This document shows positions 439-15,767 of a stretch of DNA of 16,537 nucleotides, piece after piece. The DNA is taken from contig JAYZAY010000019.1 of NCBI GenBank assembly GCA_036339465.1, positions 1-16,537 of the forward strand. Reading direction: 5' to 3'. This DNA comes from Myxococcota bacterium. Lineage in GTDB: Bacteria; Myxococcota; XYA12-FULL-58-9; JABJBS01. The notes below the pieces were generated by a model. The model made no database searches. It had not been told where the DNA came from and saw nothing but the letters and a program-made list of their open reading frames with translations. Made by a program: the position numbers and the translations under genes. Position 1 is the first letter of the stretch; every line of letters begins with the position of its first letter.

Positions 439-2706
439 ATGTTGTTTTATCGCCATTGGCAATTAGGCGGTGCGACCGCGGAGCCTCGCTTGCCCCTTAC
501 CAAGCTTACTCTCTTTGTGTGGGCAAGCATTATTGGTTTTGGTGGATGCCAAAAGGCGGTCGAAGTCAAAGTGGATGCGGAGAAAGAAGAGGCTGTTGTC
601 AACCTTCATTATAAAGCGGCGCTTCCTGCCAATCCTAAAATCCATGGGCCTTCTTTTGCGCGTTTGATGGCAGGGGAGAAGTATCGTCCTGAAATTCATC
701 AAGATGTCCAGACTTGTGTGCGTTGTCATCCAGACCATGTTGGACAATGGCGAGAGAGCATGCATGCATTCTCATCGTTTAATAACCCGCTCTATCGAAT
801 GGCGTTTGATGATTACGTCGGCAAAGTAGGACCTGAAAAGGCGGCTTTTTGTGGAGGTTGTCATGATACTTCCATGATCTTTGATGGGTCCATCGCCAAG
901 AAAATCGAACCCAACGACCCGCGTGCCCACACGGGCATTACGTGTAATGGTTGTCATGGGATTGTGAAGGCAACGACTACCGGGGTCGCGAGTTATGTTG
1001 TGACCACGACGCCAATCCCGATTCCCGAAGAAGGAAACCCCGAGAGTCTTGTGGCACACCGAGCTAGGGTGGGAATGAAGGGACTTCGTTCGGAGGCTAT
1101 GTGTATATCGTGTCATCGGGGATTTCTGTCAGAAGCATCCGGCCACGAGGTTTTTGTGCCCGCCTTGGATGAGTTTGGACCTTGGCGCCATTCGGCTTAT
1201 GCCAATAGCCACGCGGGTATTTTCGGAAAAACAGTGCAGCAGGCCACATGTGTGGATTGTCATATGAAGGAATACACGGAGCTTAAGCCCGATGGAAAAA
1301 TTGCCACACGGCATTCCCACCGTTTTGCAGGAGGGCATACAGCGTTTGCTGCAGCCATTGGCTCTAAACTTCAGTTGGCCAATCATCGTTCATTGGTGGA
1401 GAACGTGGCTTATTTGGATATTCCCTTACTGGGACAAGGGCGTGAGCCTGGTTATCCCTCTGAAGATCCATGGCAACCAAGCCCTGCCCATAAGGATATT
1501 TGGTTCGATGTAGTACTGGCGAATACGGGGGTGGCCCATCACTTTCCCGGGGGAGCGCGTGACCTACGTGATACTTGGTTGGAGGTTACTCTAGAAGACA
1601 AAGATGGTAAAATCATTGCAGAATCTGGTGCGGGTCACATTGAAGACCCAATAAAGGCGGACGCCCATATCCTGCATGCGGGTGTGGTCGATGAAAAGGG
1701 CCGATTGGTGAAATCCCATTCGGTCAGTCATTTTCGAACTGCGGCCTATGACCACACCATTGCACCCTTGGATGCACAGGTCATCCGTTATCGGTGGGCA
1801 CTGCCAAAAGGAGAGCAACTACCATCGGCATTTCGGATGAAGGCGAAGCTACACCAAAGGCGATTGAGCGAAGCTTTTCAGAATGCTGCCTGTGAGGCAT
1901 CCAAAACAAAACGAGGCGCTCTTTTCAATCAGGCGGCTCAGAAATACACCGGGTTGAAAGTGGATATTTGCACCGCCCAACCGGTGGTTCTTTTGGCCGA
2001 ACACGAAATTTTGGTTGATGGGGGTCAACATGTTCCTCAAAATTCCGAGGTGATGTGGGCGCGGTGGTATTGGCATGGTTTGGCGTCGTCTCATCTCTTG
2101 CAAGAAAAGTTGGATCAGGCGGTGAATAGTTTTAGGCGCGCTCAAAAGTTCACGGGTCAGGGCCCAGGTTCCACCCATAAGGATGCCATGCTTCGAGCGG
2201 GTTTGGCCGATGTTTTGGTACGTCAGGGACGGGTGGAGGAAGCTCTTGAAGAGATCGCCAAAGTTTCATCGATTTACAAAGACCATCCCGCTTTGGCTAG
2301 AATCCGTGGGGACGCCATGGTAAAATTGTGGCGATATAAGGATGCCATTGAACCCTATAAATTGGCGGCCAAAAATGCCCCAAGAGACATGCGTTGTTGG
2401 AAGTCTTTGGCCACATCATACGGAAGTTTGAAACAATACCCAGAAGCATTGGATGCGGCGCAGAGGGGCCTTCAAATCGAACCTCGGAATGTGGATTTGT
2501 TGCGGGTTCAGATGTTGGCCTTGAATAAGCTCCGCCCCCAGAGTGAGCAGGCATTGGTGGCCCGAAAAACGTTTTTGGAATTCAAGCGAGATGAAGCGGC
2601 TCCTGAGATCAGAAGTCGATGTAGTGATGAGTCGAGTGTTTGTTTGAGGGAGCGTTTGCCTGGTCACGTTCATGAAATGCGTCGGGCTGAGGCAAAAGGA
2701 AATTGA
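439..2706 (+). CDS. Multiheme (5x CxxCH) c-type cytochrome with C-terminal TPR region, probable lipoprotein
   Basis: Five heme-binding motifs: CVRCH, CGGCH, CNGCH, CISCH, CVDCH. A QWRESMHA segment follows heme 1, typical of c554-like multiheme domains. A hydrophobic stretch ends in a lipobox-like IGFGG-C. TPR-like helices lie in the last ~200 aa. The ORF opens at TTG 367; ATG 439 is the preferred but uncertain start. Confidence 0.85.
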   Translation: MLFYRHWQLGGATAEPRLPLTKLTLFVWASIIGFGGCQKAVEVKVDAEKEEAVVNLHYKAALPANPKIHGPSFARLMAGEKYRPEIHQDVQTCVRCHPDHVGQWRESMHAFSSFNNPLYRMAFDDYVGKVGPEKAAFCGGCHDTSMIFDGSIAKKIEPNDPRAHTGITCNGCHGIVKATTTGVASYVVTTTPIPIPEEGNPESLVAHRARVGMKGLRSEAMCISCHRGFLSEASGHEVFVPALDEFGPWRHSAYANSHAGIFGKTVQQATCVDCHMKEYTELKPDGKIATRHSHRFAGGHTAFAAAIGSKLQLANHRSLVENVAYLDIPLLGQGREPGYPSEDPWQPSPAHKDIWFDVVLANTGVAHHFPGGARDLRDTWLEVTLEDKDGKIIAESGAGHIEDPIKADAHILHAGVVDEKGRLVKSHSVSHFRTAAYDHTIAPLDAQVIRYRWALPKGEQLPSAFRMKAKLHQRRLSEAFQNAACEASKTKRGALFNQAAQKYTGLKVDICTAQPVVLLAEHEILVDGGQHVPQNSEVMWARWYWHGLASSHLLQEKLDQAVNSFRRAQKFTGQGPGSTHKDAMLRAGLADVLVRQGRVEEALEEIAKVSSIYKDHPALARIRGDAMVKLWRYKDAIEPYKLAAKNAPRDMRCWKSLATSYGSLKQYPEALDAAQRGLQIEPRNVDLLRVQMLALNKLRPQSEQALVARKTFLEFKRDEAAPEIRSRCSDESSVCLRERLPGHVHEMRRAEAKGN

Positions 2707-2756
2707 TGATGGATTTAGAAGGTCGAAAAATCTCACAACCCATGAGGAGAAATAAA

Positions 2757-4460
2757 ATGCAGCGTTTTTTGAGAAAAAAAGCTCGGTGGTTAACAGTGAT
2801 GATTTCTGGTGCTGCCTGCTTATTGGCAGGAGGGAATGCTCAAGCTTTCTGCGGCTTTTATGTTGCGGGTGGTGAGAGCAGCCTCTTTAACGATGCCACC
2901 CAGGTGGTGTTGATGCGGGACGGAACCAAAACTGTGCTCTCTATGCAAAACAACTACAAAGGCCCCCCTGAAAATTTTGCCATGGTGACCCCGGTCCCCC
3001 AGGTGTTGCAACAAGAGAACGTGAAAACGCTATCGCCTGATGTATTCAAGAAAATCGATACCCTGACGGCACCTCGACTCGTTGAGTATTGGGAGAAGGA
3101 CCCCTGTGAACCGGAATATATGGAGCGAGATGGGGTGATGATGGCTACTGCCGACAGTGCAGGAGGTGTGCCAGAAAGCGCCGTTCAGATAGAGGCCCAA
3201 TTTGAAGTGGGCGAATATGAGATTGTTGTTTTGAGTACGGGCGATTCCACGGCTCTGGAAACATGGTTGGTGGACAACCAGTACAATATTCCAAGCGGTG
3301 CAGACACTTATTTTGAACCCTACGTTGAAAGTGGGATGTATTTCTTTGTGGCCAAGGTGAAAACGGAAAAGGTAACCATGGAAGATGGCCGAGCTGTTTT
3401 ATCCCCACTGCGATTCCATTATGATTCCACGGAATTTAGCCTTCCCATTCGTCTGGGATTGATCAACTCCAGTGGCAGCCAGGATCTCATTGTTTATACC
3501 CTAGGCAAAAATCAGCGCTATGACGTTGCAAACCGCGAAAACTTAACTATCCCCACCAATATCGAAGTCATCAACGACGTTCGAAACAGCTTTGGAGAGT
3601 TTTACCGAACCCTCTTTGCTGAAACCATCGCTCAGAACCCCGGCGCAGCGGTGACTGAGTACTCTTGGGACGCAGGCAGTTGTGACCCTTGTCCGGGTCC
3701 CACTTTGAATCAAGAAGACTATATGACCTTTGGGGCAGATGTGTTGAATTCCGACGATAGCATGTGGGCTTCTTGGGTGGTAACCCGACTTCATGTTCGT
3801 TATGATTCCAACACCATTGGTGACGATTTGGTTTTTCGGGCAGCGCCGCCCATTGCTGGGGGTAGAGAACGTTACACGAGTCCCAATCTTCTTGAGACGG
3901 GTTCGATTTCTTCTAATGTCAACAATTTCCAGGGGCGCTATATCATTCGTCATCCATGGGAAGGGCCTGTGGAATGCGATGACCCCGGCACCGATAGACG
4001 CTGGGGTGGCCAAGGTGGCAGCGATTCGGTGAGTGCTCAAGCCGCCGTCAGCCCGAATTCAGGTGGCGTGGCCCCGCCCGCGGCAAATCAAAGCGACACC
4101 AGCAATACCGAGAGCAGTAACACCAATACAGGCACCGACACCAGTGAAGGCACCGACACCAGTAATACTGAGAGCAGTAACACCAATACAGGCACCGACA
4201 CCAGCAATACGGGTAACGGCGCACAAACGCAGAGTCCAAGTAAATTACCTTCCAACGATTTGAAAGATTTGGTCTACGATGAAATCCCCGAGCTAAATGT
4301 GATTCCCACCGCGACGAGTCCAGCTTTGATTGCTCCGGAGGCTACAGGCTGTGCCTGTTCTTCCAGTGATACGGCGGCGGGTTCTGGGATTCTTCTTTTG
4401 ACTTTTGGCATGACTTATTATTGGGTCTATCGCCGGCGTAGAATATTTGAACGGGTCTAA
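2757..4460 (+). CDS. DUF2330 domain protein with S/T/N-rich linker and MYXO-CTERM-like sorting signal
   Basis: RBS GAGGAG lies just upstream of ATG 2757. A signal peptide ending AQA is followed by FCGFYVAG...LFNDATQVVL, with GEYEIVVLS, LPIRLG and SCDPC motifs typical of DUF2330. The C-terminus is GCAC + TM helix + RRRR. Confidence 0.88.
   Translation: MQRFLRKKARWLTVMISGAACLLAGGNAQAFCGFYVAGGESSLFNDATQVVLMRDGTKTVLSMQNNYKGPPENFAMVTPVPQVLQQENVKTLSPDVFKKIDTLTAPRLVEYWEKDPCEPEYMERDGVMMATADSAGGVPESAVQIEAQFEVGEYEIVVLSTGDSTALETWLVDNQYNIPSGADTYFEPYVESGMYFFVAKVKTEKVTMEDGRAVLSPLRFHYDSTEFSLPIRLGLINSSGSQDLIVYTLGKNQRYDVANRENLTIPTNIEVINDVRNSFGEFYRTLFAETIAQNPGAAVTEYSWDAGSCDPCPGPTLNQEDYMTFGADVLNSDDSMWASWVVTRLHVRYDSNTIGDDLVFRAAPPIAGGRERYTSPNLLETGSISSNVNNFQGRYIIRHPWEGPVECDDPGTDRRWGGQGGSDSVSAQAAVSPNSGGVAPPAANQSDTSNTESSNTNTGTDTSEGTDTSNTESSNTNTGTDTSNTGNGAQTQSPSKLPSNDLKDLVYDEIPELNVIPTATSPALIAPEATGCACSSSDTAAGSGILLLTFGMTYYWVYRRRRIFERV
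4094..4210 (+). repeat. Intragenic tandem duplication, 60-bp period, encoding DTSNTESSNTNTGTDTS twice
   Basis: 4094-4144 and 4154-4204 are identical except for two synonymous substitutions (agc/agt, acc/act). The GACACCAG subunit occurs four times. Confidence 0.9.
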
Positions 4461-4582
4461 AGGTCGCTTAAGAACGCCCCCCAGCGAGGACGATACGCTT
4501 AGCCCCATGATTTTGTGGTTTTTATGCTTTGCCGCCAATTGAGGTCTTGCATTTCTTTACTTGCTTCATTAGCTCTTTCTCG

Positions 4583-5119
4583 ATGATCCGACATCCCCTC
4601 CACACACCCGTGCCTGACCATTGGTCTGTTAAAGATGCCCTAAGTTCTTATTTAAATGAAAATGGATTTACGGTAGAGGAATACGACGCGGATGTGGTGA
4701 GGGTGACCTTTTGGGGCATCACATTTCCGGTGCCGAATCCCCCACAACGTAAAATCGCGGTGCGTTTCCATGATCTACATCATATCATGACCGGCTTTGG
4801 CACAGATCCCACCGGGGAAGGTGAGATTTCCGCTTGGGAGCTCCGACGGGGTGTGGGCGTTTTTGGCTTTTACGTGCGGTGTATCGTTTTTTTTGGCGCC
4901 GTCATGGGTTGTCTTCATAGCCCTCGGCGGACTCTCAAAGCTTGGCGAGCAGCCCGCAGTTCTTTGGGGCTGCGTCCAGCCACCATGGCGGGTTATCTCG
5001 AACTTCTCGAACTCACCGTCGGTGATTTACGTGCTATGTATGATGTTTCCAGTCATGGCATTGCGGGTGCTCACAAGTTGCATTACGACGTGCCATCAGT
5101 GGAAAACCAGTCCACTTAA
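4583..5119 (+). CDS. Coq4-like metal-binding protein (HDxxH-x11-E)
   Basis: HDLHHIMTGFGTDPTGE matches the HDxxH-x11-E motif of the Coq4 family. The ATG 4583 start is uncertain because there is no clear RBS. Confidence 0.65.
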   Translation: MIRHPLHTPVPDHWSVKDALSSYLNENGFTVEEYDADVVRVTFWGITFPVPNPPQRKIAVRFHDLHHIMTGFGTDPTGEGEISAWELRRGVGVFGFYVRCIVFFGAVMGCLHSPRRTLKAWRAARSSLGLRPATMAGYLELLELTVGDLRAMYDVSSHGIAGAHKLHYDVPSVENQST

Positions 5120-5201
5120 CCTTGACTGGCTAGATTTTGAATTCGATGGTGTGACGCGGCTAGGGCCCAAATTTTGGGGTATGCAAGAAGGGATACTTGG
5201 A

Positions 5202-5495
5202 ATGACGAAAGCTTGGCTTGGACGACTTCGGTTCATCGCCCTATTGGAGGGTGTTTTGTATGGGATTTTGCTCGCTGTGGCGATGCCCCTAAAATATTTT
5301 TATGGCATACCCATAGCGGTACGATTTTTCGGTATCCTACACGGATTGTTCTTTATCGTCTTGGTGTTCACCCTCTTGCAGGCCCATGTGGCCTATGGAT
5401 GGAGACTCAAATTTAGCGCCCAAGTATTTGTGGCTTCTCTGATCCCCCTCGGAGCGTTTTGGATGGATCGGCGCCTGAAAACTTTGGAGGCGTAA
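5202..5495 (+). CDS. DUF3817 family small integral membrane protein
   Basis: RFIALLEG...AMPLKY...GILHG...ASLIPLG motifs and three hydrophobic segments. An alternative ATG lies at 5181. Confidence 0.85.
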   Translation: MTKAWLGRLRFIALLEGVLYGILLAVAMPLKYFYGIPIAVRFFGILHGLFFIVLVFTLLQAHVAYGWRLKFSAQVFVASLIPLGAFWMDRRLKTLEA

Positions 5496-8884: not shown

Positions 8885-10144
8885 CTATTTTTGTTCTTGC
8901 AGGGTTGGGTTGTCGGCCAAAATCACCCCAATAAGATCTTCAAGCTTTTTTCTCTTGGCGGGCTCGTGGGCATAGGTCCCCCACATTGACTGGAGGCCAT
9001 TGAAAGCCTGTTGAAGTTCTGAATTATCGAAATAGGAAACCGATTGATTAAATAAATTAAACACGGGACGGAAGAAATTTTGACGACTTCTGACACTTTC
9101 ACTGGTGGCAAAGGTTCTCGGTATGGATTGAGAAAAGACCCCCTTCTTTTGTAATATAAAGCAACCATCGTTTTCAACCCGTAATTTTGCTCCCTTGTAT
9201 CTTGGAAGCATAGCCAGGGTTTTTAGTTGCTGAAAATAGAGGTCAGCTTCGGGTGGGAAGGCTCTATTGACGGCCTCTGATACGCTAGGGCTGACATGTT
9301 CAAGAGACTCAGGTCGAAAGCTAAAGCTTTCCGGATTTGCGACAGCAAAATCAAGGATCTTACTTTGCATCTCGCGAAGTTCGGTTTCTGCCGTTACGAG
9401 CGCCTTTCTACGGGCATCTAACTCTCTTGCAACGGTTTTTAGTTCGATACTCCGCGCTTCTAGGGTCTCCAGTCGCTCTTGCGCACGAATTTCGTGAGAG
9501 TCTGCTTCCGCGATTTCGTGATTGAGCTGAGCTAGTTTTGCTCTTTTTTCCCTTCCAAAGGCATCTCGGTCTTTACTGAGTTGCTCGAAGGCTTTCGCGA
9601 CTCTCCCTTCCAACTTCTGCGTTTGGAATCGAAGTTCGGCAGCTTGGACCTCCAAGGCTGATTTGGTGAGTTGGAGTTCTTGGTTGGTGTTTTCGAGACC
9701 TTTACCTGTGGCTTTGAGAATATTGATTTCCGTGTTCAAGCTATCGACTTCATTTCGAAGTTTTAGAAGCGCACCACTCAGCGCCTTATGGGCGTAGGAG
9801 TCTCGGTAGTTATTATGTTTCGCGAATGCTCCAGCGGCGATACAGGACAAAGCAATGCTGCCTCCGAGGATTTTAGTTGCGATGGGTTCAGGTGCAAAAA
9901 TGAGGACGCCTGCGGCAATGGCACCACCACTGATCAATGCATCGGTGCCATATTGTTTGGTGGCGTATTCCATATCGTCGATGGGTTGGGGAACTTCAAG
10001 ATTGCATTCACGGCCAGACACAAAGACGGCGGCATTGGATTCACAGGCGACAGGTGACGAATTAGAGCTTGGGGCGATAGAGTCTACGGGTGTCAACTCG
10101 GACGGGCTCGTGGTTAATGAAGGGATTGTATTTGTTAAGGGCAT
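8885..10144 (-). CDS. Hypothetical effector-like protein: S/T/P-rich N-terminus, hydrophobic hairpin, coiled coil, C-terminal helical domain
   Basis: Strong RBS AAGGAG precedes ATG 10144 (the ORF track's GTG at 10261 is less likely). Bilobed hydrophobic segment at 9821-9940 and a long heptad-rich region at about 9350-9790. Confidence 0.8.
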   Translation of the reverse strand: MPLTNTIPSLTTSPSELTPVDSIAPSSNSSPVACESNAAVFVSGRECNLEVPQPIDDMEYATKQYGTDALISGGAIAAGVLIFAPEPIATKILGGSIALSCIAAGAFAKHNNYRDSYAHKALSGALLKLRNEVDSLNTEINILKATGKGLENTNQELQLTKSALEVQAAELRFQTQKLEGRVAKAFEQLSKDRDAFGREKRAKLAQLNHEIAEADSHEIRAQERLETLEARSIELKTVARELDARRKALVTAETELREMQSKILDFAVANPESFSFRPESLEHVSPSVSEAVNRAFPPEADLYFQQLKTLAMLPRYKGAKLRVENDGCFILQKKGVFSQSIPRTFATSESVRSRQNFFRPVFNLFNQSVSYFDNSELQQAFNGLQSMWGTYAHEPAKRKKLEDLIGVILADNPTLQEQK

Positions 10145-10190
10145 TGTTTTCTCCTTAATTTGATTCGGTATTGATAAAGAATCTGTGGCC

Positions 10191-10418
10191 TCATGGGTGC
10201 CTGGTTTCTCGGATTGGGTTTCGAGGCTGTGTGCTGGTGACGGAGTGTAAAAATGCGCCACTCCCTAATTTAGCGACTGCCAGACCCACCTCAATCGCCA
10301 AATCGCGGGGGCAGAGGAGCTTAGACGCAATACATCCCAAAAGCCTACTGCCTGTGGGCGGCACTGAGGAGGAGCGCGTCGAGGCGATGGTGGGTTGAGT
10401 GTTACGGATAAGGGTCAC
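10191..10418 (-). CDS. Possible small protein (75 aa) upstream of the effector-like gene
   Basis: GTG start preceded by GGAG. It ends 46 bp before ATG 10144 on the same strand and has an S/T/P-rich N-terminus. No family recognised. Confidence 0.35.
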   Translation of the reverse strand: MTLIRNTQPTIASTRSSSVPPTGSRLLGCIASKLLCPRDLAIEVGLAVAKLGSGAFLHSVTSTQPRNPIRETRHP

Positions 10419-10609: not shown

Positions 10610-11848
10610 CTATCTAAACAAGACCTCAAGCCCGCTCGGTTCCGTATAAACCCGGGTGCTGTGATTCACGCCGGGTACTTCCACCAAATCATGATTGTGG
10701 GGAGCGTAGAACCTATCTAGATAGGCTAGGTAGTTTGTGGCTCGCTCTAGACGTTGGCTGCCCTGCACGTTGGCCTCGCAATTGGTGGCCATGCTGCCAT
10801 GGTCGTAATTATCATCCTGTCCCATAAGATAGGTCACATCGCGGTTTCGATAACGGCTACGGATACTGTTGCGTGAGCTGGCGGCCATATAACTATTTCG
10901 GAACTCGAAGCCATATTTATACGCATTGAAAGCGAGGGGGCAAAATAAGTTATCATCATCGTCGGTCGCGGGTGGGAAATCGGGATGAGGAAAGAGAAAC
11001 GGGGGAATGGGGCCCCAGACCCAAGGGACGACAAAAGAACTTCCGTCACTGCCAGGAACGGGGCGCCGGTCGGACAAATACATATAACTCGATGGATTTG
11101 AAGGGACATATTTCACGGCGACATCAAGGTGGGATGCCGGCACCCAACGAGATCCGGCCGCGAACGGTTGGGTGAATTGTCCCCCGGCGGAGTGACCAGT
11201 GACGACGATCTCATCTAAATTTGGGAACTTATTCAGATCGGTTAAACGACTCAGGATTTGGTCAACGATGGCAAAAGAACTAAGGGTAGAACCACTGTTG
11301 ATGGAATTGTTGCCCTTTGACCAATCCGCGCCTCTCCAAAATAGTTCAAAGCTGTCTGGGTTATCGCTTTGATTTCGAAACCAGGGCACGATGACGATGG
11401 TATTGGTGCTGGCACAGGGGTCGTGTGCTTTCTCGGCGAGTTCTGTGGCGCGGCGTATTTGATTAAACATACTGGAGGCATTACGGCCCAAACCATGGAC
11501 GGCCACGATGGCTCTGCGAATTTTAGTGTTTCTGGTGCCAAGGGCATGGTTTCGGTAGTAGTGAAGTTTTTTAGCACCAAAGGAGAGTCGGCCGCGGCAA
11601 TTGCTTCCCTGGCAGGACCGTGGCGATTTTGGGCAAAGATGAGGGTGGAGTCTGGGGTGGGCATTGCTCAAACTTAATTCGTTTTCCTCTGTGGAAATCG
11701 CTAGGGCTTCCCCAATATCATCCGAGATATTTTCCAGGTCTAAGGGATATTCATCGCCGCATGCCGCGAAAAAAACGGAGACTAAAAGGGTAACCCCAAT
11801 CTTCCAAATGGATGGCTTCGCAATGAAACCCAAAGTACATAGACGCAT
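10610..11848 (-). CDS. Alpha/beta hydrolase fold lipoprotein
   Basis: RBS AGGAG and lipobox FAAC. Motifs AIVAVHGLGRNA, nucleophile GHSAGGQF, NPSSYMY, YLMGQDD (Asp), QGSQRLERA and VPGVNH (His). Confidence 0.85.
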   Translation of the reverse strand: MRLCTLGFIAKPSIWKIGVTLLVSVFFAACGDEYPLDLENISDDIGEALAISTEENELSLSNAHPRLHPHLCPKSPRSCQGSNCRGRLSFGAKKLHYYRNHALGTRNTKIRRAIVAVHGLGRNASSMFNQIRRATELAEKAHDPCASTNTIVIVPWFRNQSDNPDSFELFWRGADWSKGNNSINSGSTLSSFAIVDQILSRLTDLNKFPNLDEIVVTGHSAGGQFTQPFAAGSRWVPASHLDVAVKYVPSNPSSYMYLSDRRPVPGSDGSSFVVPWVWGPIPPFLFPHPDFPPATDDDDNLFCPLAFNAYKYGFEFRNSYMAASSRNSIRSRYRNRDVTYLMGQDDNYDHGSMATNCEANVQGSQRLERATNYLAYLDRFYAPHNHDLVEVPGVNHSTRVYTEPSGLEVLFR

Positions 11849-11880: not shown

Positions 11881-11953
11881 GCTTAACGTTTTTGCTCCCT
11901 CAAAGATTGCTGATTTGTTGATAGGCTTTCTCAACCGTTGAACTTTTGTTCAT
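11881..11953 (-). promoter_or_regulatory. Putative activator-dependent promoter: two AACAAA-N4-CAA direct repeats plus TAAGC element
   Basis: On the + strand: GCTTA at 11881, ATTGctgaTTTGTT at 11906 and GTTGAACTTTTGTTCA at 11937. The same elements recur with the same spacing at 15832-15904. Confidence 0.6.
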
Positions 11954-11972
11954 ACGTTTCTATGACCGACCT

Positions 11973-14696
11973 ATGAATCTAAACAACGATGTTTTCGTAG
12001 GCAGGGCAGAGCTTCTAGACGACCTTCTGGAGGCATTTACCCATCAAGCAGTTCGTTGGCTGGTGGGGCCACCAGGCATCGGCAAAAGCAGGCTCATGGA
12101 AGAAGCGGTGCAAACCAGTCAGAAAAGGCGAGTCCTCATCCAGGGGTCGTGGCTCCAGACAAGGGAAGAAGCCATCGACGGTTTCACCCATTACCTCGGT
12201 GGTGCCCCCGAAGGGGACAGTCGTTTTGCTCTGAATCGATGGATCTATTCAAAATTGGGGCATCTACGGGATGGGCAGCATCCTCCTCAGGTGGTGGTGA
12301 TTAAAGACTTCCACCTAGTCGAAAGAGAATTTGCAGGCATTCTCGTACAGGCTGCGCGTAAATCAAGACTGCCCTTCGCCCTCTGCTTCTTAAGCCGTGA
12401 ATACTTCCATGAAGGCGACTTTCTAAGCTATGGATTCCAACGTTTGACCTTAGGTTCTCTTAAGGTGGATGAATCTCGTCTTTTGGCCAATTCTTTGGGA
12501 TTCCCACTGGAGAAAATCCCCGAGCATGTTCACGGCAATCCGGGCCTGATGATTCTTTATGCCCGGCACGGCCATGTAGACGTGGCATCGTGGATAGAGG
12601 ATGAATTACGAAAGGCACCCGAGGCGGTAAGAAAACTGCTTTGGCGCCTCTCTTTGGTGGATACCAAAGAGCAGCTTTGGTGGGCCTGTCACGGATCTGG
12701 AACGTGCTTGGAACTCGATTATATCCAGCAACGAAGTCTTCTTCAGGAGAATGGCCAAATTCTAAGAACCATTCGTCCTTATTTACGTCATGGATTGCGA
12801 GAGAGTGGTCACTTCGAAAGCACAGAGAGGCAACTTTTTGAATACCTGCTAAGCAAATCCGATCTCGAAATGCGAGATTTGCGTCGACTTACCTCGCTTT
12901 CTTCTAGATACGCCACCGGTGCACAACTAAGACTGTTTTTGAGCCTCTATGCGACCACTGAAGATGTTTCGAAATCCAATTTGGGACTCTTGCAGATTCA
13001 AATCAACGAACTCCTTTTGTCTGATGATCTGCCTCCCACTTCCAAGCTTCAGGGGTACCGGGCTCTTTATGAGAATGCGGATGTGCCACGCCTTATGGAG
13101 GCCCACGACCTTTTCGAAGGTTCAGAAATCGAGGATGAATCTCTTTTGGGGAGATTGTGTTTGCTGCGAGCTTGGGGGTTGACCCGGACGCGAAACCTAA
13201 ACGGCGCCGGAGCGGAATATTGGAAAGGATTTTTGGACAACCGTGCCGAGCATAGAGAAGGGTATGAAGTGGTTTTGGAGCAAGTGGCCCACATTTATAG
13301 CTACGTGGGATTTCATCTTTCCCCCGATAGCCAAGTGGCTGAAATAGCATCCCAACTTCGCGATGAAATTGTTCTTCCAACCAATGTTCAACACGCCTAC
13401 CAACGAATGCAGGATACCGCAAAAGCGGCGTGGAATTTGGATTTCACCAAGGCCACCGAGGTGTGTAGGGAGGCCATTGCGCTCTTTTCTGGAGCGAAGT
13501 TAGAACAATTTGCAGAATATTGCCGTTATACCTTGCTCATGCTCTATTTTGCCACCTGCGATGAGGATGGGATGGTGGGTCTTTTGGAAGACTTAACTAA
13601 ATCACCCGGAAACAACGATTATAAAGACGAGTATGTCACATTCATAGAAACCATTGTCCAATGGCAGAGAGGTGATATTTCCAAGTTGAATGCCTATGCC
13701 CAGCTGTCAACTTCGGCGACATCCCCCGCACACGATTTGCTTGGGGGCCCCTATTTTCAAGTTTCCTTCCCCCTATGTTTTGAAGTTATTGGTGACCGCC
13801 ATTTTGGTGTGAAGCCAAGGCTGTCTCAGATTGAGCTCATGGCTTCGGCTTTATCCAATCAAAGATTTAGTATCTCCCATCTTTTGGCAGCCATTGCTTT
13901 AGCTCAGAATTGTGTGTTGCATGGTCAATACAACGAAGTGAAGGGACTCTTGGCGTCGATGAGCGGTTATCATCCCATGGGTGGACTTCATGCCATGGCT
14001 CTACATCAATTGATGATGCCCCAAGATCCCATGATGGCCACTCAAATGTTGGGCGTGTTGATTGAGCAATTGGGGATTTATCCTGAACGCCTAACCACCC
14101 CCTATTATATCGTTTTATTAACCCAAGCTGTGCTTCGCGACGGGATTGCGCCGGAGATTTTGCTGACTGCCGTGGACTCGACTCCTGGTTTTAATAAGCT
14201 GCATGGGCAAAGTCGTTGGATTATCGATATTTGTCTCGATATTTTAAGGGGAACTGAGCCCGAGGTGGGGGGGGCTCAACTGATCCCCTTGGATTTAATC
14301 CAATTGATTCGGCGCCAAGTTATGTCTGCGGTGGTCCCCGTGATTGACAAGACCGTCAAAAATTCTCCTGAGGCAGAAAAGCTCCGTGGTTATATCGATG
14401 AGAATTGGTTTGAAAAGCTGGAGCTTGGAAAATACGCTGAAGATGAAGGTATATCTAGAACATCCATGTGGCAAGCTTTTCGGGGTGCCTATGGCCTTTC
14501 GCCAAAGCAATACCACAATAGGAAGAGGATCGAGGAGGCCAAGGTGATTTTAATGCAAACCAATTGGTCGGTGACAGATATTGCCTATGAATGTGGTTTC
14601 TCTGATACGGCACAATTTTGTCGGGTCTTCAAAATCACCACTGACCATACCCCATCCCAATTCCGAAGCCAGGCTTCTAGGGCAGTGGTGAATTGA
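11973..14696 (+). CDS. Large transcriptional regulator: N-terminal STAND/AAA-type ATPase, helical middle, C-terminal AraC-family HTH
   Basis: FVGR start motif, Walker A GPPGIGKS, Walker B-like VVVIKDFH and GNP motif. The C-terminus RIEEAKVILMQTNWSVTDIAYECGFSDTAQFCRVFK...TPSQFR is an AraC signature. Confidence 0.88.
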   Translation: MNLNNDVFVGRAELLDDLLEAFTHQAVRWLVGPPGIGKSRLMEEAVQTSQKRRVLIQGSWLQTREEAIDGFTHYLGGAPEGDSRFALNRWIYSKLGHLRDGQHPPQVVVIKDFHLVEREFAGILVQAARKSRLPFALCFLSREYFHEGDFLSYGFQRLTLGSLKVDESRLLANSLGFPLEKIPEHVHGNPGLMILYARHGHVDVASWIEDELRKAPEAVRKLLWRLSLVDTKEQLWWACHGSGTCLELDYIQQRSLLQENGQILRTIRPYLRHGLRESGHFESTERQLFEYLLSKSDLEMRDLRRLTSLSSRYATGAQLRLFLSLYATTEDVSKSNLGLLQIQINELLLSDDLPPTSKLQGYRALYENADVPRLMEAHDLFEGSEIEDESLLGRLCLLRAWGLTRTRNLNGAGAEYWKGFLDNRAEHREGYEVVLEQVAHIYSYVGFHLSPDSQVAEIASQLRDEIVLPTNVQHAYQRMQDTAKAAWNLDFTKATEVCREAIALFSGAKLEQFAEYCRYTLLMLYFATCDEDGMVGLLEDLTKSPGNNDYKDEYVTFIETIVQWQRGDISKLNAYAQLSTSATSPAHDLLGGPYFQVSFPLCFEVIGDRHFGVKPRLSQIELMASALSNQRFSISHLLAAIALAQNCVLHGQYNEVKGLLASMSGYHPMGGLHAMALHQLMMPQDPMMATQMLGVLIEQLGIYPERLTTPYYIVLLTQAVLRDGIAPEILLTAVDSTPGFNKLHGQSRWIIDICLDILRGTEPEVGGAQLIPLDLIQLIRRQVMSAVVPVIDKTVKNSPEAEKLRGYIDENWFEKLELGKYAEDEGISRTSMWQAFRGAYGLSPKQYHNRKRIEEAKVILMQTNWSVTDIAYECGFSDTAQFCRVFKITTDHTPSQFRSQASRAVVN

Positions 14697-14714: not shown

Positions 14715-15767
14715 TTATCTGCGCTTTCTTCTAACTTTCTTTTTAAGTCTAGTAGAACGCTTGGTGAACGAAATTTCCCGGCATGGTAGTGGGGTTTTAG
14801 GATGATCCGTGATGATCACCAATTCACTATTCTGAACTTCTATATCACAGATGATATGTCCCAGAGGGATGTTACTTTCTAGCGCATCTTCTAGTTGGGT
14901 GAGTTCCAGGTCAGAGATATTTTCCGATAGCATATCGGTTATTGAATTTCCTATATTGGTGGTGTTGGCTTGCATGAAGTCTAAAATAGGGGCGGCATTG
15001 GTGATTGGAAGAGAGGTCGTAATCCCACTGGGAGTATCTATCACCACCTCTAGGCTCGCAATAATATCGGTTTGATTGTGGCTCAATTTAACAAAGAGAT
15101 CGATATCTAAATCGGCAACAAAAATTGAGTGGTTCCCATTGGGAAGGATACCTTGCAGGGCCAGGTTATACCATGGAAGTAGAGGAAATGCGGGTGAAAT
15201 CGGTGGACACATGACGCCTGTCTGGGTTTCAAACGAAATCAAAGCCGAGTCTTCGGAACCATCCAATTGGACCCGGAGGCTGGGAATGGAACCACGATTG
15301 TGCCAATCGGCGCGGAGATTTTCGAGGGAGAGTTCATTCAATGATGCGTCTGCTTGATAGGTGATAAAGCAATACGCCGGAAGTGGAGGAAGAGGACCTG
15401 GGATGGGCACTAAAGTAGGAAGAGTTCCATGCACCGAATAACCGGTTTCAAATGCCTCGACCGCTTCTTGGGGAAGGTTTAGGGGGCCAAGTATGTTCAG
15501 ACCGGCCATAATCACAGCAGGTCCCGCTCCGATGGGGCCGGGGGGGCAGTTAGCAAGCAGATCGACAGAAGTGGTGTTGCTATTAAAGACGAGGGGTTGC
15601 GTACATGCTTCAAAGACCTCTTCCAGAGCATTGGGAAGCCTTTGATCGTAGGTGGTGCGGGTGACCGAGCCGTATTGGGCGTCGCTGAAGACACCACAGC
15701 CACTCCATAGGGTCGTGAGCAGAAATAATGTGCCCTGAGAAAGTATTTTGTGGGTGAATAATTGCAT
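14715..15767 (-). CDS. Hypothetical lipoprotein with strongly basic C-terminal tail
   Basis: RBS AGGAG before ATG and a signal peptide with lipobox-like WSGC. It is a 350-aa open frame ending KRSTRLKKKVRRKRR. Confidence 0.8.
   Translation of the reverse strand: MQLFTHKILSQGTLFLLTTLWSGCGVFSDAQYGSVTRTTYDQRLPNALEEVFEACTQPLVFNSNTTSVDLLANCPPGPIGAGPAVIMAGLNILGPLNLPQEAVEAFETGYSVHGTLPTLVPIPGPLPPLPAYCFITYQADASLNELSLENLRADWHNRGSIPSLRVQLDGSEDSALISFETQTGVMCPPISPAFPLLPWYNLALQGILPNGNHSIFVADLDIDLFVKLSHNQTDIIASLEVVIDTPSGITTSLPITNAAPILDFMQANTTNIGNSITDMLSENISDLELTQLEDALESNIPLGHIICDIEVQNSELVIITDHPKTPLPCREISFTKRSTRLKKKVRRKRR

Follow-up and report, generated by a model that had tools for sequence, protein, structure and literature searches.

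A domain shared with giant-virus proteins at the C-terminus of an Inc-like coiled-coil protein, a candidate secreted effector of a Myxococcota bacterium

The stretch of DNA analysed here, hereafter called the window, is the 16,537-nt contig JAYZAY010000019.1 from a Myxococcota bacterium (assembly GCA_036339465.1). It carries a minus-strand ORF (8885-10261) whose last 119 codons were suspected in a first-pass annotation to encode a domain resembling hypothetical proteins of nucleocytoplasmic large DNA viruses (NCLDV), the giant viruses. The locus therefore raises the question of whether this resemblance reflects true homology and, if so, what such a domain may be doing at the end of a bacterial protein with a hydrophobic hairpin and a long coiled coil.

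The gene and the architecture of its product

The features of the gene are listed in Table 1. The ATG at 10144, preceded by a Shine-Dalgarno-like sequence, is the likely start, while the alternative in-frame GTG at 10261 would yield a protein of 458 aa. The full-length homologs of the product, P0003, show 42-44% identity to it, and neither Pfam nor NCBIfam contains a model matching it above the cutoff, all the matches to its coiled coil being below.

Table 1 Features of the gene for P0003 in the window (positions are those of the whole window)
Feature	Position	Strand	Basis or remark
Gene for the 419-aa protein P0003 (database length)	8885..10144	-	ATG at 10144 is the likely start
Shine-Dalgarno-like AAGGAGA ahead of the ATG at 10144	10150..10156	-	Sequence
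Ser/Thr/Pro-rich N-terminus, aa 1-40, poorly conserved, without a hydrophobic segment	10025..10144	-	Ser+Thr+Pro fraction 0.50
Hydrophobic hairpin of two lobes, aa ~65-110, turning at a PEP sequence (aa 85)	9815..9952	-	Hydropathy peaks
Coiled coil, aa ~120-266 (~150 aa)	9347..9787	-	a/d hydrophobicity 0.42 (best of 7 registers) versus 0.26 overall
Variable Pro/Ser-rich linker	9245..9346	-	Aligns poorly among homologs
NCLDV-shared domain, aa 301-419 (119 aa)	8888..9244	-	Profile, fold and conserved residues

The Ser/Thr/Pro content of the N-terminal 40 residues places them in the top 0.15% of 2,013 ORFs of the genome, and they could conceivably act as a type III secretion signal; the putative type III substrates of the same genome have N-terminal values of just 0.075-0.30, and the measure does not discriminate substrates. 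The two lobes of the hairpin reach 1.97 and 1.92 when hydropathy is averaged over 17 residues, the peaks being 1.7-2.4 across all eight proteins tested, and are only marginal with a 19-residue window, as the hairpin is Gly/Ala-rich and moderately hydrophobic. Judging by hydropathy, P0003 probably has two hydrophobic segments separated by a loop of fewer than 30 aa, the arrangement by which Inc-type proteins are recognized.

All the residues quoted in the first-pass annotation are present in the minus-strand translation of 8888-9244, namely DLYFQQLKTLAML...KGAKLRV...FSQSIPRTF...ESVRSRQNFF...LQQAFNGLQSMWGTY...KLEDLI. AlphaFold2, supplied with a 45-row alignment, folds this stretch into a helix, a beta-hairpin, a flexible amphipathic loop and three helices with a pLDDT of 90.7 and a pTM of 0.85, all five models lying between 88.6 and 90.7 in pLDDT, and according to this prediction the stretch is a real domain. 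The hydrophobic moment of the loop is up to 0.54, and the conserved residues flank it. The junction between the coil and the domain is spanned without joints by contigs from three of the four sequencing runs examined (X1, X2 and X3, belonging to three studies, one of which may be the source sample). Among the 22 listed runs sharing the words, 14 contain at least one fifth of them, with 13 of these 14 labelled marine or seawater, and there is no RNA dataset among the 22.

As for the other genes of the window, the plus strand encodes a multiheme cytochrome c-TPR protein (367-2706) overlapping a DUF2330 protein (2703-4460), which has a near-cutoff MYXO-CTERM tail and two copies of the short tandem repeat DTSNTESSNTNTGT. 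The same-strand ORFs 4529-5119 and 4797-5495 (+) overlap by ~320 nt, and the true start of the latter is probably located later, since its DUF3817 match covers only aa 142-228. The gene at 11946-14696 (+) encodes a protein of 916 aa that begins with a STAND/AAA-like region and ends with an AraC helix-turn-helix. Its neighbours are 10610-11848, to which it is divergent, and 14715-15767, to which it is convergent; each codes for an exported protein that no Pfam model matches over its cutoff.

Close relatives and modularity of the domain

The same genome (G000) possesses a paralog on contig C16 which is cut at the contig end and has a 39% identical domain preceded by a divergent linker. About 10 kb from this paralog, the locus L001:3-2859 (G000:C16) contains a ParA-like gene followed by a gene for a long Pro/Ser-rich protein with a helix-turn-helix-like C-terminal end. 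Further close relatives include one in the family member G004, two metagenome loci, and the proteins P0004, P0005, P0007 and P0008. In all three loci other than the window's own, a gene for a hairpin-plus-coil paralog without the domain (278 aa, one of the copies being cut) lies directly upstream, suggesting that the domain is a detachable addition, and the remaining gene neighbours vary from locus to locus. A broad profile finds the domain in only two of the 401 genomes of the phylum, and the gene is present in only one of five family genomes; each of the four family genomes searched apart from G000 has LcrH- and SseC-like genes. The low count together with the differing neighbours is what would be expected of an accessory gene.

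Word-indexed protein searches gave no match to the domain alone among proteins of 65-209 aa, no match to the 45-row alignment among proteins of 62-254 aa, and nothing beyond P0003 itself and P0004 for the full-length protein. No Pfam family matches more than one of the 45 domain members, TBLASTN against plasmids and phages found no match, and the ESM Atlas returned nothing usable for either the domain or a viral member.

Homology to the giant-virus family

The viral set was obtained by scanning IMG/VR with the motif proposed in the first-pass annotation, which resulted in 96 loci, 36 of which were aligned; of the 80 loci listed, 35 are giant-virus MAGs. The motif is located ~90-130 residues into a short ORF in nearly all of these loci, and most of the sampled viral members are 126-200 aa long with little outside the domain. 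In three loci (L051, L098 and L100) the domain is C-terminal in proteins of 259-407 aa and is thus modular in viruses too.

Comparison of the bacterial-side (45 rows) and viral (36 rows) alignments with HHalign gave a probability of 98.4% and an E-value of 4.5e-15 over 114 columns, and the six closest sequences alone still gave 96.3%. Because the search motif biased the viral sample, a control was performed in which only the part upstream of the motif was scored, using 54 non-redundant viral proteins selected from 78 unique ones with at least 80 aa ahead of the motif. In this control 38 of the 54 proteins score above every one of 5,454 shuffled or reversed sequences, and the upstream half alone was aligned by HHalign with a probability of 97.7% and an E-value of 1.8e-12. 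Conservation in both sets extends to L7, K20, L21 and R43, four residues not forced by the motif, and the unselected R43 occurs in every bacterial-side row (100%) and in 98% of the viral ones.

The structural comparison points in the same direction. When the domain model was searched against BFVD with Foldseek, giant-virus proteins ranked first: among the first 31 rows, all 29 named entries are giant-virus proteins and the other two are unnamed, with a best E-value of 6.9e-4 (the only one at or below 0.001), probabilities of at least 0.9 for 28 rows, identities of 9-23% and TMq values up to 0.64-0.66. A first model of the domain led to the same result. Members such as A0A5J6VJQ4, A0A3G5A3W9 (Gaeavirus), A0A8F8KM35 (Clandestinovirus), E3T4J6 (CroV) and W5S5H5 (Pithovirus) have the same predicted fold (probability 1.0) and share with the window domain a common L-K-L-R-AxxGLxxLxxTY pattern. 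The window copy differs in having a shorter middle section, in lacking the N and D of the viral motif and in being placed on a hairpin plus coil, whereas most of the sampled viral members are nearly domain only. Since HHalign, the motif-free control and Foldseek agree, the suspected resemblance is borne out, and the homology between the domain and the NCLDV family is almost certainly real, though remote.

How remote it is can be seen from the individual searches. With the viral profile, the window ORF comes out on top among 25,528 six-frame segments, yet with an E-value of 0.032, and its single domain sequence scores only 18.8 bits; the same profile found no match in the window's genome at E ≤ 0.01, direct searches from the bacterial side returned no recognisable viral protein, and a close-motif scan of viral contigs with the queries A1, P0048 and P0017 gave no match. 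The missed genome, the low Foldseek identities and modest best E-value, and the silence of the 45-row alignment in the word-indexed search are what a chance or convergent similarity between small helical bundles would produce, but we consider such a coincidence highly improbable given the result for the motif-independent half, the near-invariant R43 and the lack of a comparable match in the PDB. There, nothing but generic helical proteins was matched by the sequence search, Foldseek and VIA, the best Z values from VIA being 6.7 and 6.2, the latter with an rmsd of 3.3 over 78 aligned residues; the DOCK10 DHR-2 rows have Z 5.9-6.5.

None of 23 viral members matches Pfam over the cutoff. The neighbours of the viral genes vary, the largest shared family being present in 16 of the 96 loci, and these neighbourhoods offer no clue to function. 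No title or abstract found by our literature search describes the domain, nor do the available parts of PMC11696984 and PMC3482391, although the viral family may appear in supplements with an NCVOG or GVOG number.

N-terminal fusions to effector-like enzymes

A profile hmmsearch of 1.84 billion representative sequences resulted in 56 matches, six of which belong to the close family and 48 of which have the domain near the N-terminus; the remaining two (P0053 and P0057) were repeat-driven false matches and were discarded. The N-terminal fusions are known here from protein sequences alone. In 22 of the 48 the domain is fused to Peptidase_C58 of the YopT/AvrPphB type (18 over the cutoff), and Cys/His/Asp motifs are present in 20 of the 23 C58-type proteins checked, while eight are fused to HopA1 (six over the cutoff), which has a phosphothreonine-lyase-like fold. 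The other 18 match neither family and comprise nine short or fragmentary sequences, four resembling either group by eye, and five (P0032, P0033, P0043, P0048 and P0050) in which the module is followed at the C-terminus by a domain of a third, unclassified kind, which has no match in Pfam or NCBIfam and, in the case of P0043, no PDB match by sequence. Several of these third-domain proteins are the closest of all to the viral profile. No housekeeping domain over the cutoff was found in any of the 48, and a search of six family genomes detected neither Peptidase_C58 nor CesT, the controls there being equally silent. YopT is described as cleaving host Rho GTPases (PMC3482391).

The NCLDV-shared domain is therefore, as far as the protein sequences indicate, an N-terminal module of effector-like enzymes, which is a new observation. 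Placed before unrelated enzymes and, in the window, behind a membrane anchor, this small module appears to behave like an effector localisation domain of the kind described in PMC3417404.

Taking together its architecture, the modularity and viral homology of its domain and the type III secretion genes present in the genome, we suggest, with roughly even confidence, that P0003 is an effector which is secreted, inserts into a membrane and bears an exchangeable targeting module. This reading is suggested by the 30 of 48 N-terminal relatives fused to YopT-like or HopA1-like domains, by the domain-less hairpin-coil paralogs upstream in the three other loci and by the accessory pattern of occurrence, as well as by the homology to NCLDV proteins, which act inside eukaryotic cells. 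P0003 might instead be a resident coiled-coil protein of the inner membrane, such as a scaffold or a sensor, in which the domain serves for binding in general and does nothing in other cells. A two-helix anchor followed by a coiled coil is common bacterial anatomy, the tandem paralogs could build a coiled-coil complex within the cell, and no type III secretion genes were found near the domain gene in the four loci read (the window, L008, L009 and L010). We nevertheless regard this as unlikely, because the Pfam families fused to the N-terminal relatives are of effector type and not of housekeeping type, the distribution is patchy, and the domain has relatives in NCLDV.

Evolutionary history and base composition

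A maximum-likelihood tree was built from 90 rows and 117 columns, both sets of sequences coming from biased searches and the bootstrap being not fully settled; the viral row L094 (6.5 bits) was excluded from the group counts. In this tree 44 viral rows sit together on one side of a branch (96/90). The clade of nine rows that includes the window's (100/95) is on the other side, among the enzyme-fusion rows, its exact place being weakly supported. The closest relatives of the window domain are N-terminal modules of effector-like enzymes. Some of the fusions are also far nearer to the viral profile than the window domain with its 18.8 bits: P0048 scores 45.3, P0025 42.0 and P0043 41.7 bits.

In base composition the domain is more AT-rich than its surroundings, as had been noticed at first pass, although the effect is small: its GC content is 0.426 versus 0.499 in the rest of the gene, and its GC3 0.437 versus 0.47. 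The 357-nt windows of the genome have a GC content of 0.489 ± 0.036, with 3.6% of 11,624 such windows being as low as the domain, and in all five copies measured the domain lies 1-8 GC points under the rest of the gene or locus. The AT-richness is real yet mild and gives no pointer to recent transfer.

These data bear on the proposal that the domain passed straight from a giant virus into this lineage when both were in the same protist. It draws on the NCLDV homology, on the first rank of the window ORF for the viral profile, on the lower GC content of all the copies and on the constrained tree with the window clade beside the viruses, which was not rejected (p-AU 0.345). The separate viral rows, however, and the fusions nearer to the viral profile do not indicate a direct graft from a virus, within the limits of 117 columns and biased sampling, and the GC content of the domain is well above the 0.268 median of the viral loci, so that we hold this route to be distinctly improbable. 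Of the graft onto a membrane-anchored coiled coil claimed initially, the modular addition to the hairpin and coil stands, as the tandem paralogs without the domain testify, while its viral origin is not supported: the window clade is not nested in the viral rows, even if a sister position to them is compatible with the data.

Type III secretion genes in the genome

The genome looks Myxococcota-like, with the MXAN_2562 family over the cutoff and MYXO-CTERM just under it. It encodes an SctV (835.6 bits versus a cutoff of 692, and below the FlhA cutoff), which is alone on contig C59, and a cluster on C64 (L029:11212-L030:6332, ~36,200-51,300 of the contig) with genes for SctJ, L, N, Q, R, S, T and U. 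In this cluster only SctR and SctS exceed their cutoffs, the other six being best matched by type III models at sub-cutoff scores, and there are also an SctI-like gene, LcrH-like chaperones and a FliA/WhiG-like sigma factor. A 159-aa gene product of the same cluster ends with MKTKHDTAKGMIQNVR and is presumably filament-like.

A translocon-like operon of four genes is located on the minus strand of C33 (L158:8139-12675, ~93,100-97,700 of the contig), in the order of a 347-aa gene, a double LcrH-like chaperone, an SseC/YopB-like hairpin protein (E 2.8e-4) and a 281-aa protein with one hydrophobic segment. From the gene order, we tentatively take the 347-aa product to be the tip protein and the 281-aa one to be the second translocator. 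SseC is over the cutoff in all four of the other family genomes searched. On C30 (L159:4449-7983, ~56,400-60,000 of the contig), an LcrH chaperone gene over the cutoff faces two unclassified genes of 227 and 767 aa, whose products may be type III substrates. The only secretin-like match in the genome, within a 1,721-aa frame, has 118 bits versus the SctC cutoff of 238, and no promoter motif common to the domain gene and the type III genes was seen by eye.

The type III genes and the translocon-like operon are consistent with secretion of P0003. Export would most likely proceed through this system, after which the hairpin would lodge in a membrane of that cell's target, much like the hairpins of chlamydial Incs (PMC3048545), the long coiled coil would hold out the ~115-aa module toward the targeted cell, and the module would dock on a membrane or a conserved protein of a eukaryotic target cell. 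Against the effector reading, the gene is unlinked to the type III loci, no SctC is over the cutoff, the Ser/Thr/Pro content is non-discriminating, the hairpin is moderately hydrophobic, the domain is C-terminal here, unlike in the enzyme fusions, and LcrH/SseC-like genes occur in all four other family genomes searched, the gene itself in only one of five.

According to the available portions of PMC12075869, PMC10433427 and PMC3459982, moreover, the T3SS* of M. xanthus has no secretin, needle or translocon and serves the lysis of bacterial prey. As the T3SS* is needed for prey lysis, its effectors are described as unknown (PMC10433427, PMC12075869) and our genome looks myxobacterial, P0003 could also be a predation factor delivered into bacterial prey by a T3SS*- or Kil-type machine, with the hairpin and coil damaging the prey membrane. 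This seems rather unlikely, since the domain occurs in so few genomes of the phylum, a phage search with a viral member gave no match, there is no obvious immunity gene alongside, and the homologs belong to eukaryotic viruses. For the secreted effector that we favour, a eukaryotic target is supported by the YopT-like and HopA1-like partners and the translocon-like operon and disfavoured by the use that myxobacteria make of their T3SS* on bacterial prey; the eukaryote-targeting function and protist association put forward in the first-pass annotation we only infer.

Comparison with known systems

Members of the viral family occur in many lineages of giant viruses, and we found neither a Pfam model nor a solved structure nor a function for them. 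A first testable hint comes from the bacterial fusions: a module placed before effector-type enzymes should be their aiming or docking part. P0003 is in turn a concrete candidate substrate for a Myxococcota type III system and hints that uncultured marine Myxococcota attack or inhabit eukaryotes. More tentatively, and with less confidence than we place in the effector reading itself, the fold, not described so far, may serve everywhere for docking on the same conserved lipid or protein of eukaryotes, many giant viruses employing it by itself and bacterial effectors bearing it as an exchangeable part for aiming, with marine Myxococcota injecting an Inc-like version into protists through a translocon-bearing type III system, although myxobacterial type III systems have been described as unable to deliver into eukaryotes.

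In its architecture P0003 resembles the chlamydial Inc proteins of the IncA type as presented in the available part of PMC3048545, with which it would share an unstructured N-terminus, a bilobed hairpin with a short loop, a long coiled coil and a producer possessing type III secretion. Its producer is Myxococcota-like and not a chlamydia and is not known to occupy a vacuole, and P0003 has an extra C-terminal domain, so it is better called Inc-like than an Inc. The Legionella proteins LegC2/C7 have the same hairpin-coil anatomy, and their model matches the P0003 coil with 15.8 bits versus a cutoff of 350.

The domain itself may be likened to the 4-helix-bundle membrane localisation domain (MLD; PMC3417404, available part), likewise a small module of helices that is found fused, at either terminus, to catalytic domains of unrelated kinds, the likeness possibly extending to conserved basic residues (K20 and R43 in the window domain) next to exposed aromatic ones. 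It differs from the MLD in having a beta-hairpin and a long amphipathic loop and in being found in viruses as well, and no MLD structure is among the top PDB rows for it. A precedent for effector domains common to bacteria and NCLDV is given by MCF1-SHE, Ntox19 and Tox-JAB-2, which in the accessible text of PMC3482391 are predicted to be catalytic and are present in few viral lineages, whereas the window domain looks non-catalytic and its matches, being of the mimivirus, pithovirus and algal-virus types, are spread more widely. Both NCLDV-shared effector domains and swappable targeting domains are already known kinds.
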